Shown here: positions 1,253 through 7,376 of the stretch, piece after piece
Numbering within the stretch: position 1 is the stretch's first letter
How the letters are laid out: each line of letters opens with the position of its first letter
IMG/VR virus record: IMGVR_UViG_3300025133_000020
Length of the DNA: 64,000 nucleotides
Origin: a virus
Lineage: Duplodnaviria > Caudoviricetes
Reading direction: 5' to 3' (one strand)
Position numbers and translations under genes: made by a program
Notes under the pieces: generated by a model
Seen by the model: the letters and a program-made list of their open reading frames with translations, nothing else
What the model was told of the DNA's origin: nothing
Database searches by the model: none

Positions 1253-1741
1253 ATGGCTGATTTACTAATGAAAATGCCCGTCCCTTATGAACCGAAAAGG
1301 AAGAATAGGTGGATGTTACGATTCCCATCAGATTTGGGTATTCAAGAATGGTGGTTATCATCAGCCGCTAGACCTTCAATTACTCAGAACGAAGTTCCAA
1401 TTCCATTCCTTAACACGGAAACTTACGTTGTTGGACGTTTCAACTGGGAAGCAATTGATGTTACATTCAGAGATGCTATCGGACCTTCCACAGCGCAAGC
1501 TATTATGGAATGGGTTAGATTACAATCTGAATCTATCACAGGACGACAAGGTTATGCCGCAGGTTACAAGAAAGACATCGAAATTGAGATGCTTGACCCT
1601 GCTGGTGTAGTAATTGAGAAATGGGTTCTTCAAGGAACAATGCTTACTAACGTGAACTTCGGTGACCTTAGTATGGATGATGACGCTATCGCTGATATCG
1701 TTGCAACATTGAGATTTGACAGAGCAATCCTTCTTTTCTAA
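1253..1741 (+). CDS. Tail tube protein (T4 gp19-like)
   Basis: 162 aa, downstream of the sheath gene. Motifs EPKRKNRWMLRF, SAARPSIT, YVVGRFNWEAIDVTFRD, AGYKKDIEIEMLDPAG and ATLRFDRA are typical of myovirus tube proteins. Confidence 0.88.
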   Translation: MADLLMKMPVPYEPKRKNRWMLRFPSDLGIQEWWLSSAARPSITQNEVPIPFLNTETYVVGRFNWEAIDVTFRDAIGPSTAQAIMEWVRLQSESITGRQGYAAGYKKDIEIEMLDPAGVVIEKWVLQGTMLTNVNFGDLSMDDDAIADIVATLRFDRAILLF

Positions 1742-2240: not shown

Positions 2241-3293
2241 ATGGCTGATAAAAAACCAAATGTTTTCCCAACAACGGAGACAACTCCAGTAGAAACACCT
2301 GAAGCTCCAACACAACATGTATCTGACGCAGAAATGAGCGCATCTCAAGAGATGCTTAAGCGTACTGAACAACAATTAAAAGAACGTGAAGCAGCGTTGA
2401 ACACACCAAAGATTGATGCGGCACCTATTGAAGCTCTAAATTATAATCAATTGGCTGACCTGTCACAAAAAGTGACAAAAGAAGCTATGGCTAATCATCC
2501 AGCAATGCAAACTGCCGTGGTTCCAGAACCAGTTGATACCGAATTAAGTAGCCTGTTAAGCCCTAAATGGGATTCAGCTTATGATATGATTCCACTACCA
2601 TCAAAGGCTAAAACCTATAAAGGTGTGAAGTCTAGCGTTAAGGTGGCTTATATGACAGGTTCTGATGAGAATATTCTAACTTCAGCTAACCTATTGGAGA
2701 GTGGTGACTTCCTTAAAGTTCTGGTTAGTAGAAACCTATTAGAACCAAACCTTAAATATGAGGATTTATTGGTTGGCGATAGAAACGCAATCATGATTTG
2801 GTTAAGAGGTAGTTCATTCGGAAATATGTACCCAATCACTATTATAAACGATGACGGTGTGGCTGAAGAAGTAGAGTATGATTTGAATGGTTTGAAATAC
2901 ATATACATGGATATTGACCCAGATGAAAATGGTTACTTTGATTTTACGTGCCCACAGAGTGGTGATGTTCTTAAGTATCGATACCTAACAGTTCGTGACG
3001 AAGACGCTATCGAAGCTCAAATAGAGGAAGATGATGAAAACGGTGTTCAAGTTAACCGTAGGGCAACCTATAGATTACAACGACAAATCGTAACGATTAA
3101 TGATAATTCAGACGTTACATACATATCCAAACGTATTGACGATATGAGATTGGGTGATATTAGAGCTTTTAGGAAGTTCTATGACGAAAATGAATCAGGA
3201 GTGGATTTAAAAATTGAAGTATTGACGGCTGGGGGTAAGTCCGTCAAGACGTTTCTTCCGTTTAACTTCAACTTTTTTTGGTCTAAGTCATGA
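2241..3293 (+). CDS. Tail assembly chaperone / baseplate hub assembly protein (T4 gp26-like)
   Basis: Lies between tube and tape measure genes. Motifs YDMIPLPSK, VKVAYMTGSDENILTS, LLVGDRNAIMIWLRGSSFG and MRLGDIRAFRKF, ending LPFNFNFFW. Confidence 0.75.
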   Translation: MADKKPNVFPTTETTPVETPEAPTQHVSDAEMSASQEMLKRTEQQLKEREAALNTPKIDAAPIEALNYNQLADLSQKVTKEAMANHPAMQTAVVPEPVDTELSSLLSPKWDSAYDMIPLPSKAKTYKGVKSSVKVAYMTGSDENILTSANLLESGDFLKVLVSRNLLEPNLKYEDLLVGDRNAIMIWLRGSSFGNMYPITIINDDGVAEEVEYDLNGLKYIYMDIDPDENGYFDFTCPQSGDVLKYRYLTVRDEDAIEAQIEEDDENGVQVNRRATYRLQRQIVTINDNSDVTYISKRIDDMRLGDIRAFRKFYDENESGVDLKIEVLTAGGKSVKTFLPFNFNFFWSKS

Positions 3294-3534
3294 GTACCGT
3301 AATTGGTTAGAAGAAGAGTTTTTCGTTTGCACTAAACATATCGGATATTCTTATGCCGACCTATTGATGATGCCTACTTCAACTAGAAGGTATCAACTAC
3401 ACCTACTTATGAATGAAAACCGAGCTAAACAAGAACATTACGACAAGTTGAGGGAGAAGAACTCTGGTGGTAAAAATACCATTAGCGGTGACGCATTAAA
3501 GTCTAAGATGAAATCAGGTGAAATCAATACTTAA
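3274..3534 (+). CDS. Frameshift-accessed extension of the tail chaperone (G/GT-type product), not in the ORF track
   Basis: The +1 frame is open from 3226 to TAA at 3532-3534 and has no ATG before 3367. It is entered at the T7 run 3273-3279 and reads FFGLSHEYRNWLEEEFFVCTKHIGYSYADLLMMPTSTRRYQLHLL...KSGEINT. Confidence 0.72.
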   Translation, partial: FFGLSHEYRNWLEEEFFVCTKHIGYSYADLLMMPTSTRRYQLHLLMNENRAKQEHYDKLREKNSGGKNTISGDALKSKMKSGEINT

Positions 3535-3552
3535 TGTTTCCGACCTTAAGGA

Positions 3553-3576: not shown

Positions 3577-4914
3577 ATGAAAAGAAGAGTAAAGATAACT
3601 GAGAGTCAATTCGATAGATTATTCGAAGATGATACTGACCCTATGCTGATATTCCAGAACTTGGAAGTGGGTGATAGTATCTATACCAAAGAGACAGATG
3701 GGTCACACTCATTCCAAGTAATAGATGATTTAGGTAACGCCCTTAAGTTGGCTAGCTTAGACCAAAAATCAACCAAAACAGGTTGGAATTATATCGTATC
3801 TAAGGTTGAAGGTATCCAAGATGATGATATTAAACTACAACTAATATCTAAGAAGAACCCAGACGCTGCTCCGCGTAATCATACAATAAAAGGTGTTTTA
3901 AGTGTTAAGACATTCGATAAGAATAACACCGAAAAAGATTCCGTTACTGTAGGGGAACCACCAAAACCAAAACCAGACCCAAACTCACCAACTAACGCTA
4001 CAAATATAGCTACGGATGATATTGATGATGAGGATACAAGACGTAAAACATTAGAAGATGTACTTAGACAATTAAAGGAATTAAAGGAAGGTAGGTATTA
4101 CATTTTCAAAGTAGAAGAGACTACCAGCATCATATTCAAAGTTAATAATAATGATGGGTCTAACCTAAATGTTACCATAGTATCATCAACTGGTGCTGAA
4201 AAGGATAAGTATTTAGCACTTAAAGGTGATGAATATACTATACCATTAACCATGGAGAATTTAAGTATATCGGATATGGGTCATGGTTGGTTTAATATGG
4301 GTATGATTGGTGGTGGAAATACCAATACCTTATCAGATATTTCAAATATCAGCGACTTTGTTGAATATAGTGGTGAAGATGATAATGACGACCAAGCTGA
4401 CGACCAAGCTGACGACCAAGTTGATATTAAAAAACCTAATAAGAATAAGATGTTAAACTTTTTGAAAAAAAATCCAGACATCGCTTCCGCGTTACACCAC
4501 CAACCAAAATTATTTGGTATGTTTGATGCTGGTGAACCAGTTGGTTTAGCTGCTCTTAATAACGTACTAAACAGTTATGAAGATAGAACAGAGGCTGGCG
4601 AACAATTCGAAAATAACCGTCAAGTTAAATTTACAATACAAAGTCACGATATCCAACTTAAGGTTGGTGCCACTAACACCGATAGGTATAAGAGGGGTGC
4701 TAATATGAGAGCTATAACAAGAAAAAATGATAGGGGTATTGTAATGTTATTTATTGGGGAGGGCACCAGAAATGAGCTTACCATAAAAATCTTAGACCTT
4801 GTAGATGATGATACATATAAGGTTAAATTCATCCTAACTAAAATCATAAATAAGGTGGAAGAGACTGATAGCAAATATGGCGTGATAAAAATAACTGATT
4901 ATAATAATAAGTAA
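3577..4914 (+). CDS. Hypothetical (probably virion) protein with N-terminal KITESQF leader
   Basis: 445-aa ORF directly upstream of the tape measure gene; acidic/Pro linkers separate beta-rich segments. Confidence 0.75.
   Translation: MKRRVKITESQFDRLFEDDTDPMLIFQNLEVGDSIYTKETDGSHSFQVIDDLGNALKLASLDQKSTKTGWNYIVSKVEGIQDDDIKLQLISKKNPDAAPRNHTIKGVLSVKTFDKNNTEKDSVTVGEPPKPKPDPNSPTNATNIATDDIDDEDTRRKTLEDVLRQLKELKEGRYYIFKVEETTSIIFKVNNNDGSNLNVTIVSSTGAEKDKYLALKGDEYTIPLTMENLSISDMGHGWFNMGMIGGGNTNTLSDISNISDFVEYSGEDDNDDQADDQADDQVDIKKPNKNKMLNFLKKNPDIASALHHQPKLFGMFDAGEPVGLAALNNVLNSYEDRTEAGEQFENNRQVKFTIQSHDIQLKVGATNTDRYKRGANMRAITRKNDRGIVMLFIGEGTRNELTIKILDLVDDDTYKVKFILTKIINKVEETDSKYGVIKITDYNNK
4387..4422 (+). repeat. 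12-bp tandem repeat x3 (GACGACCAAGCT) encoding DDQA
   Basis: GACGACCAAGCT GACGACCAAGCT GACGACCAAGTT read directly. Confidence 0.9.
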
Positions 4915-4916
4915 TT

Positions 4917-7376
4917 ATGGCTGATGGAAGTAGAGAATTAAGAGAACATTTAGCCTTACTAAAGAAGATAGCCAAATATCAAAAAGATATGGGGTCTGGC
5001 TTCGATGGGTACTTAGATGGTATAAAGAAGCTTGGTATGCAGCAAGCTCAAATAGAACATCTATTAACCAGTCAGTACCAGCTACATGAAAAAATTATAG
5101 ACCTTGAACTTAGGAAAAGTAGAGCCACTGGAGTAGTGGCAGATGATTTACAAGACCAAATAGATGCGGCTATAGAGCTTAATGATGCTTACGAAGAGGG
5201 TATAGCCTTCGAACAACAACATTTAGACCTACTTAGGGAGAGTACTCAACAAGTAAGTTTACTTAATGTGGGTTATAAATCCATGGGTAAAGCTTGGAAT
5301 AAAATTCCAGGTCAAGCCAAGAAAATGTATGGTTGGGTTTCCAGCATGGCTGCTTTGGATATGTCCAAAGATATTAAGCAAGCCGAGCTTAGTATGGGTG
5401 TACTATCCAACCAATCCAAGTTCTTCTCTAAAACAATGTCCGATGCTTCCAAGTCCACCATTCAAATTGGTATTGGCGTATCCGACTTAGCGAAATCACA
5501 AGCTGAATACTCCGAGAGTATCGGTAGAAATATGATGCTTTCGGAAGACCAGTATCAAGCTATGGCTGAAATGGCTAAGGGTACTGTTCTGGGTGTTCAA
5601 GGTGCAGCAGAGATGGCAGCATCTATGGAAACCTTCGGGTTAAGTGTTGAAGGTTCTCGTGATATGATTCAGGAGACCGTGGATGCGGCTCAGAGTATGG
5701 GTACAAATACCTCTAAGACCATCAAAGAGCTTAGTAACGCTCTTAAATTGGCTCAGAGGTATCATTTCAAGGGTGGTATTAAAGGAATGGCTAGTATGGC
5801 TTCCTACGCAGCCAAAATGGGTATGGATATGGCTAATGTGGCTGGAATGGCTGAAAAGGTATTCAGACCAGAAGGTGCTGTTGAAATGTCAGCTAGATTG
5901 GCTACCATGGGTGGTCAAATGGCAAGACTTGGTGACCCGTTCACTTTGATGTTCAAGGCACGTAACGATTTAGAAGGCTTCATGAAAGATGTTGGGGCTG
6001 CGGCAGAAGAATTCGCTCAATTCAATGAGAAGACTGGTGAGTTCGATATTACTGGTCTACAATTAGATAGAATGCGAGAGTTAGCTGATATTACAGGACT
6101 TAGCGTTGAAGAGATGTCCAAATTAGCTAGGGAAGGTGCCAAATTCAGTAAAATAGAAAGATTAATACCAGCATCAATTGTGAGTGATGAAGATAGAGAT
6201 TTAATATCATCAATGGCTAGCTATGATGCAAAATCTAAGCAATGGGAAGTAACCATAAACGGTGACACCAAATTCCTTAGTGATTTAGACCAGACAGAAT
6301 TAGATATATATAAAAGAGACCAAGAAAGCCTTAAAGAACGAGCAAAACAAGCACAAACGTTTGATGATGCGTTTAATAATCTTGTTATGCAATTCAAGAC
6401 GGTTGGTTTACCATTCGTTGAAGCGTTGAATGAGCATTTCGTACCAGCACTAATTGAGTTCCAAAAGAAATTAATTGATGAGGGTTGGATTGATAAACTA
6501 AAGGAAGTTGCTGAAGATGTGGCGAGTTTTGTAGTAGGGGTAGGAAAAGTAGCTAAAACATTCATTGATATCTTTGGTATTAAAGGTACCGCTATAGCTC
6601 TTGGGTTAACGACAGTATTCTTCAATGCGGCTCAGTGGTACGCCAATGGTGTGGCATTAGCTAAAGGATTCAATATGGCTAGTGGTGAAGGTGGTGGATT
6701 ATTTGACATGTTTACTGGTGGTGGTAAAAAAGGTAAGAAAGGTAAAAGCAAGATACCCAAGATGGGTAAAATGGGTAAGCTGAGTAAGCTAGGTAAATTC
6801 GCAGCACCGTTAGCCCTTCTAGGTGCTGGTATGGATGGTATAACAAATGCTGGTGATGATTCATTAACTGGTGGTCAAGCTGTTGGGAAAACCTTAGACC
6901 AAAATAAATTTATGGGTATGGGTGCAGGTTTAGGCTTGCTTGGCGGTCCTTTTGCACCTCTTACTGTAGCTGGTGGTGCTGGTATTGGTGCAATAATAGA
7001 TTTAATAGCTAATAACATGTTAGGTGATGATGCGTTAATAGGTCACCACATGGGGCAATACAACATGGATGATGGTATCATCAAATTTAACCCACAAGAT
7101 AAATTCCTTCAAATGGATGATGGGATGGTTGCATCAACTGATAAAGGAAAAATTGATGACATCGCTAAGACTTCAAAAGATTCTGGTGGAAAAACTAAAG
7201 TCGAATTTGGTGATTTGAATATTAAAGGTGAAATCACTTTGAAGGATAATAACGGAAATAAGATTAATAGTAACCTACTTAAAGACCCATTCTTCATTAA
7301 AGAAATCACAAGTATGATACAACAACAGTTGAGTATAAATCTATCAGGTGGAAAATTAAATCCTAACCCTGCGTAA
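4917..7376 (+). CDS. Tape measure protein
   Basis: 819 aa, Ala/Gly/Met-rich and helical, with a hydrophobic Gly-rich segment (AAPLALLGAG...AGGAGIGAIIDL); located after tube and chaperone genes. Confidence 0.85.
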   Translation: MADGSRELREHLALLKKIAKYQKDMGSGFDGYLDGIKKLGMQQAQIEHLLTSQYQLHEKIIDLELRKSRATGVVADDLQDQIDAAIELNDAYEEGIAFEQQHLDLLRESTQQVSLLNVGYKSMGKAWNKIPGQAKKMYGWVSSMAALDMSKDIKQAELSMGVLSNQSKFFSKTMSDASKSTIQIGIGVSDLAKSQAEYSESIGRNMMLSEDQYQAMAEMAKGTVLGVQGAAEMAASMETFGLSVEGSRDMIQETVDAAQSMGTNTSKTIKELSNALKLAQRYHFKGGIKGMASMASYAAKMGMDMANVAGMAEKVFRPEGAVEMSARLATMGGQMARLGDPFTLMFKARNDLEGFMKDVGAAAEEFAQFNEKTGEFDITGLQLDRMRELADITGLSVEEMSKLAREGAKFSKIERLIPASIVSDEDRDLISSMASYDAKSKQWEVTINGDTKFLSDLDQTELDIYKRDQESLKERAKQAQTFDDAFNNLVMQFKTVGLPFVEALNEHFVPALIEFQKKLIDEGWIDKLKEVAEDVASFVVGVGKVAKTFIDIFGIKGTAIALGLTTVFFNAAQWYANGVALAKGFNMASGEGGGLFDMFTGGGKKGKKGKSKIPKMGKMGKLSKLGKFAAPLALLGAGMDGITNAGDDSLTGGQAVGKTLDQNKFMGMGAGLGLLGGPFAPLTVAGGAGIGAIIDLIANNMLGDDALIGHHMGQYNMDDGIIKFNPQDKFLQMDDGMVASTDKGKIDDIAKTSKDSGGKTKVEFGDLNIKGEITLKDNNGNKINSNLLKDPFFIKEITSMIQQQLSINLSGGKLNPNPA

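Follow-up and report, generated by a model that had tools for sequence, protein, structure and literature searches.

A tail gene in the DNA analysed here, a 64,000-nucleotide stretch of a large marine phage (Caudoviricetes record IMGVR_UViG_3300025133_000020; hereafter the window), raises the question of how a long open frame that overlaps the end of the gene, and that lacks a usual start codon near its beginning, might be translated. On the plus strand, the ORF at 2241–3293 encodes 350 amino acids and ends in AAC TTT TTT TGG TCT AAG TCA TGA, with a run of seven T residues (T7, or U7 in the mRNA) at 3273–3279, near its 3' end. The -1 frame is closed by the TAA at 3284, just past this run, and the +1 frame has no stop between 3226 and the TAA at 3532–3534, which leaves 86 sense codons counted from 3274. 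This layout, first described in the initial annotation, was confirmed on the sequence in every element, as was the claim that no start codon precedes the +1 frame: its first ATG, GTG or TTG is the TTG at 3364, followed by the ATG at 3367, both within the conserved domain of the extension, and the sole earlier near-cognate start is the CTG at 3229. Of the 35 gene ends in the window, this is the only one with a long ORF in another frame that has no ATG until far past the stop, so the overlap arrangement is more than chance would give.

The product of ORF 2241–3293 is, judged by profile matches and a structural model, a T4 gp26-like tail assembly chaperone (the short form, TAC-N or G). It matches phrog_150 with an E-value of 1.8e-5 and PF12322 with an E-value of 4.9e-5 (23.6 bits, slightly below the 24.5 cut-off); phrog_150 is also matched by 12/12 aligned relatives. 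The AlphaFold model (pLDDT 89.6) gave as its top four VIA-align structural matches 3fgx (Z 6.2), 3klu (Z 5.4), 2ob9 (Z 5.1) and 5ir0 (Z 4.5), with modest Z scores and an rmsd of 3.5–5.9 across 79–88 residues, and these matches fall on two separate halves of the model. 3fgx and 3klu are reportedly chaperones too (Pell 2013); 2ob9 is the HK97 tail assembly chaperone. A Foldseek search of the PDB with the same model returned no match. The protein apparently contains two chaperone-fold halves (model residues 10–102 and 129–219), and the segment encoded by 2241–2540 adds an N-terminal stretch of about 100 residues with many Pro, Glu and Thr, outside the family domain.

The chaperone gene lies between the tail tube gene (1253–1741, plus strand; phrog_4542, E 3e-28; PF06841, E 9e-4) and the presumed tape measure gene (4917–7376, plus strand, 819 residues), with one extra gene on each side. 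The ORF at 4917–7376 has no Pfam or PHROG family match and is assigned by synteny, the tape measure gene coming directly after the chaperone locus in annotated relatives. The additional gene that the initial annotation had placed between chaperone and tape measure is real: it occupies 3577–4914 on the plus strand, encodes 445 amino acids and matches no Pfam or PHROG family. An ORF of 290–650 residues with a similar N-terminal motif is found at this place in most of the clade and is absent from L002, L018, L025, L102 and L137. The motif, a basic-hydrophobic segment ending in I-[TR]-E-S-Q, is shared in the window by ORFs 806 and 3577 and recurs in most relatives' inserted genes (L001, L003, L004, L016–L033 and L096–L123). 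A candidate late promoter, TATTTAT, is present at 794, 1204, 3553 and 7623, 12–50 nucleotides upstream of ORFs 806, 1253, 3577 and 7650; none precedes the +1-frame extension, and a promoter and terminator scan near the shift site gave nothing above shuffled sequences. Most upstream regions of genes in the window are A-rich and carry no Shine-Dalgarno sequence; a Bacteroidota host fits with such starts and with the presence of a Flavobacterium phage among the few cultured matches.

Codon differences among the seven closest sequences establish that the +1 frame at 3226–3534 is under purifying selection, with a ratio of synonymous to non-synonymous differences downstream of 266/313 here, the other two frames giving 71/535 and 58/561. 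By its relatives' profile matches, the extension (TAC-C or T, plus strand; it would be translated from 3256 or from 3277–3280, depending on the site discussed below) is a gp51/DUF6760-like domain: among 51 aligned relatives, 18 match PF20546 (DUF6760; best E 2.2e-5) and five match phrog_634, the gp51 family annotated as ‘baseplate hub assembly catalyst’ (best E 1.2e-5). The extension of the window itself has no match to PF20546 or phrog_634, and its link to gp51 runs through the alignment with these relatives.

The phase of the extension is conserved well beyond the window. The long frame past the stop is the +1 frame in 143/143 non-redundant loci of a first set, window included, where it is open for at least 40 codons beyond the stop in 142, and likewise in 58/58 Immutovirus-like loci; the -1 frame is never the long one in either set (143 + 58). 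The same +1 phase is found in the cultured phages RM378, SP-15, HSE3, LIS04, GXN1, immuto and Mel-JY01. In RM378 (L181, 1498–2377), TCC TTT TTT TGG is kept together with the phase, even though the tube gene is found downstream of the locus and on the other strand. Two more distant relatives, XacN1 (L185) and LR756511 (L184), encode their gp51-like domain in frame -1, and the phase is therefore not constant across the wider family. Ahead of the conserved core, 128/143 loci have a start codon, against 135 expected by chance, and these starts share no common position; in the TTT TTT TGG class, 12/48 loci, the window among them, have no start before the core at all. Moreover, the conserved +1-frame residues FFGL, Tyr+7 and Glu+14 sit 15–30 codons ahead of the window's first start codon. 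The core of the original claim, a chaperone pair of the G/GT type joined by a shift into the +1 frame, is thus supported, with a conserved site and an extension that has no start of its own.

We consider it very probable, from the comparative sequence evidence, that a programmed frameshift yields forms of 350 and about 430 amino acids. The whole is best explained, with a probability of roughly 0.78, by a gp26/gp51-family chaperone made as two products through a +1 slip on UUU_Y. Most ribosomes would end at 3293 and release the 350-residue short form, while in a minority the peptidyl-tRNA-Phe would re-pair with the UUY that overlaps UUU, and translation would continue to 3534, adding the gp51-like domain to give 430 residues. 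The slip would be ribosomal and in the +1 direction, would take place at the UUU_C at 3252, at the U7 run or possibly at both (roughly even odds), and would be stimulated by a 5' stem. Either +1 route gives a product of 430 residues in the same hydrophobic register, whereas a -2 shift gives 431. The predicted junction is LTSTFFGLSHEYR for a +1 shift at 3252 and a peptide ending in NFNFFGLSHEYR for one at the U7 run, each with two Phe residues; the corresponding peptide of the short form ends in NFFWSK.

The first candidate site is the U7 run itself, TTT TTT TGG at 3273–3281. At this site Phe-Phe is spelled TTT TTT in 102/104 cases, compared with 166/334 elsewhere, and an Arg following the site is encoded by CGN in 53/53 cases, compared with 13% in the gene body (seven site registers were set by hand in the site-codon tally, and the loci are related, so that the counts overstate their independence). 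Within the window's own clade, TTT TTT is read at 119/119 distinct sites, and the T run noted in the window is accordingly conserved in its relatives. The position of the shift can be bounded in two other clades, because a stop in the +1 frame falls shortly before the Phe-Phe register in 14/53 loci of the FFR clade and in 8/57 Immutovirus-like loci, which places the shift at the Phe-Phe register there; consistent with this, neither clade has an excess of +1-frame conservation just upstream of it. The U7 register is the candidate shared by the whole family, and probably the ancestral one. In one side group (L034–L037, L132, L135, L138, L141 and L142) TTT CTT TGG is preceded by a T9–T10 run at a distance of 9–11 codons; the +1 frame is open there, and the run may be another shift or slippage site.

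The second candidate is TTT CTT at 3252–3257 (UUU_C), which precedes the U7 run by seven codons; the zero-frame UUU_Y codons of the window's overlap are those at 3252, 3273 and 3276. UUU_Y is found at the 3252 codon in 41/44 loci of the window's clade; the neighbouring clade has it in 21/21, and among the sites found by pattern it is present in 117/119. The +1 frame is open over the six codons that follow in 44/44 loci of the clade, against 16.6 expected, and the excess +1-frame residue identity over this stretch is 0.24, above all 202 control windows (maximum 0.164). In the window's clade the +1 frame has invariant Phe and Leu where the zero-frame residue may be Leu, Phe or Ile, and in the neighbouring clade it has Leu or Met in 19/21 loci, opposite a zero-frame Phe, Tyr, Ala, Ser or Thr. 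To judge by these alignments, the six codons after 3252 look dual-coded, and dual coding (FFW/FFG) would explain the invariance of the U7 run. A similarly constrained block is present at codons -19 to -12, where there is no +1 coding, so an RNA element could mimic dual coding, and the synonymous constraint at codons -6 to -1 could come from such an element. We regard a slip at UUU_C 3252, instead of or besides the U7 run, as an even bet. The claim that the U7 run is the shift site has therefore to be divided: its conservation stands, and its role as the only or main site in this clade is called into question by the conserved TTT CTT and the dual-coding signal. A further reading, less likely than not, is that the site has moved or been duplicated seven codons upstream in the window's and the neighbouring clade, with a 5' stem 4–9 nucleotides before the site in use.

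Candidate RNA structure around the sites was found on the 5' side, where in two clades a stem precedes the presumed site by 4–9 nucleotides. Past the U7 run no stable 3' structure stands out (z from +0.15 to -1.4). Upstream, a candidate stimulatory hairpin at 3222–3247 (plus strand), which ends 4 nucleotides before the second site and has weak to moderate support from folding and from covariation in relatives, carries GGGGGU in its loop, with GGAGGU in many relatives. At nearly the same place, 41 relatives have a stem GGACUC/GGGUCC with 75% paired cells and covariation exceeding 500/500 shuffles; compared with this stem, the window pairs in a shifted register, and RNAalifold gave no consensus for the upstream stem. 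The FFR clade has a different stem, which ends 4 nucleotides before the Phe-Phe site, with 90.5% paired and 14 compensatory cells, a value reached in 0/500 shuffles; both 5' stems were derived from these alignments. In the group of L014 and L039–L094, the stem that ends 4 nucleotides before TTT TTT CGN is a long-range one of 6 bp (CCCC/GGGG; alignment columns 7–12 and 45–50) with compensatory changes, and its GGG GTG GAG arm is also Shine-Dalgarno-like. Upstream hairpins adjoining the E site raise +1 shifting in yeast and on 70S ribosomes (PMC3639245, PMC6321510), which is a suggestive parallel for a possible stimulatory role of the 5' stems.

The initial annotation had spoken of a less common -2 (or +1) shift. 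The +1-frame phase is upheld, and the lean towards -2 is not. In a -2 slip, resembling that of Mu, the tRNA-Phe paired with the second UUU codon within the U7 run would go back two bases and make a 431-residue protein containing NFFFGL, with the predicted junction peptide NFNFFFGLSHEYR. The window's U7 site is compatible with both directions, and pattern scans of its clade for variants of the site found 0 VTT TTY and 0 TTT CTN; because the site is invariant there, this clade cannot tell the direction, and the argument has to come from other lineages. The window contains UU_UUY, as do 158/200 loci, 14 loci of the neighbouring clade with NTT TTY fit a -2 shift perfectly at the U7 register, and a chaperone shift of that kind is known from Mu (PMC5009743); at TTT CTT sites, -2 re-pairing is formally possible with wobble (CUU to UUC). 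Against this, UU_UUY is missing from the whole overlap in 42/200 loci, a tally in which nine TTT CTT TGG loci of the L034 group, with a T9–T10 run upstream, did not count as incompatible with -2. Moreover, TTA TTT TGG and TTC TTT CGT are unable to re-pair at -2. By contrast, the overlap of 200/200 scored loci contains a zero-frame UUU_Y that is followed by an open +1 frame, although UUU_Y is common in AT-rich DNA, so that its presence in a single overlap says little and the argument rests on fixed positions.

Scored at the local register, 133 of the 200 loci fit both directions, 50 allow cognate re-pairing at +1 only (UUU_Y), 15 at -2 only (UU_UUY) and two at neither. The -2-only variants are confined to one clade, and 15/15 of these loci have UUU_C at codon -7; every NTT TTY locus, too, has UUU_C seven codons upstream, with the dual-coding signal between both sites. 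The variants that break -2 pairing and keep +1 (TTT CTT, TTT CTA, TTA TTT and TTC TTT) require at least five changes on the tree, and 30/57 Immutovirus-like loci are of this kind. A -2 shift had been preferred after the first 15 relatives, in which NTT TTC fits it, and this was reversed by wider sampling and by scoring the whole overlap. Since UUU_Ynn is also +1-prone in bacteria (PMC5009743), we consider +1 the likely direction from these site patterns, and -2 improbable.

A separate small protein, started within the extension (TTG 3364, ATG 3367 or CTG 3229) or by re-initiation past the stop, is how the databases annotate RM378, SP-15, HSE3 and immuto, and XacN1 and LR756511 carry the domain in another frame. 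Such a state probably exists in the family: L134 and L038, in which the local slip site is missing and a TTG or ATG of the extension frame lies close to the stop, may have switched to a separately started gene. For the window, this reading is very unlikely, because FFGL, Tyr+7 and Glu+14 are conserved ahead of any usual start, starts are no commoner than chance and not fixed in position, and the constant +1 phase and the synonymous-site constraint would be left unexplained. Slippage of RNA polymerase on the T run, with one U lost or two gained, would make a fused mRNA; there is a T7 in the template, a hairpin before a U run resembles stem-loop-stimulated slippage (PMC5009743), and one side clade has the T9–T10 run. 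Many relatives, however, have runs of 3–5 T (TTT CTT, TTA TTT, NTT TTC) with the same phase, and the conserved unit tracks codon phase rather than run length, which makes this slightly less probable still. The suspicion that a homopolymer always invites, an assembly error in a true T6 (the deletion of one T does fuse the frames into one ORF), is refuted: a contig from a second study spans 3017–3542 with no differences and no gaps relative to the window, and the T7 run, kept throughout the relatives' 119 sites, is not an assembly slip. The preferred reading remains a +1 slip on UUU_Y during translation.

In phage lambda, the two products divide the work: the tape measure protein becomes coated with the short form, and the long form brings in the tail tube protein. 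Vladimirov, Gautam and Davidson are said to have described in 2022 that frameshifting is conserved in several T4-like groups, with T4 itself having two genes. The pair described here belongs to the same families as T4 gp26 and gp51 (PF12322/phrog_150 and phrog_634) and shares their position, with the tube gene on one side and the tape measure gene on the other. According to PMC12846349, which cites the study and describes its poly-T signals as -1, Vladimirov et al. 2022 identified gp26 and gp51 as the chaperones of T4-like phages. In the present case, the phase is +1, and we propose 5' stems and an additional site further upstream. A C-terminal domain that lacks its own start and lies in another frame, ahead of the tape measure gene, is likewise found in lambda gpG/gpGT (Levin 1993; Xu, Hendrix and Duda 2004), and the HK97 chaperone 2ob9 is a structural match to the short form. 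The lambda shift is -1 (PMC5009743), while the extension here is not in the -1 frame, which stops at 3284, and, unlike in lambda, there are apparently two chaperone-fold halves, a 100-residue N-terminal extension and a 445-residue gene before the tape measure gene.

All three shifts, -1, -2 (Mu) and +1 (HSTV-2), are used for tail chaperone pairs (Atkins 2016, PMC5009743). Mu and the haloarchaeal myovirus HSTV-2 both reach the +1 frame, as here, and the present case differs from them in its UUU_Y site and in belonging to a very large family of bacterial phages; the Mu type of re-pairing, two bases back, is possible in the window and lacks cognate pairing in the 42 loci mentioned. Poly-T also marks the end of myovirus chaperone genes in Vandenendeviridae and Andersonviridae (GTTTTT) and in P2 gpE/E', where the shift is -1. 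The same UUU_Y core is found in the unrelated genes of the E. coli argI error, Yersinia yopN-tyeA (UUU-UGG) and influenza PA-X (UCC_UUU_CGU); this core reads UUU_UGG in the window's clade and UUU_CGN in 53 relatives. The yopN UUU-UGG is a weak precedent, having been proposed as the site, yet the hybrid persisted after its mutation (PMC3789692).

Tail chaperone frameshifting as such is already known, and what is new here is the conserved UUU_C at 3252–3255 with the codons behind it that look dual-coded. A search of the openly accessible literature found no report of a +1 shift for the gp26/gp51-like family. To our knowledge, bacterial systems offer few programmed +1 shifts that do not depend on a stop codon. 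The product pair itself follows the known lambda logic in its biology, which limits the surprise. The finding supports the view that T4 gp26/gp51-type ‘baseplate hub’ genes are tail assembly chaperones, and it corrects the annotation of hundreds of uncultured and several cultured large myoviruses, in which the long chaperone has been missed or called a truncated small gene. It also provides a large natural series of +1 sites, for which cultured hosts exist (Flavobacterium immuto, Bacillus SP-15 and Rhodothermus RM378). Should the upstream site and its 5' stem prove to act as proposed, the family would offer a natural +1 shift on bacterial ribosomes stimulated by an upstream refolding hairpin, where the literature examples found are designed reporters, and a traceable migration of a recoding site inside a gene.
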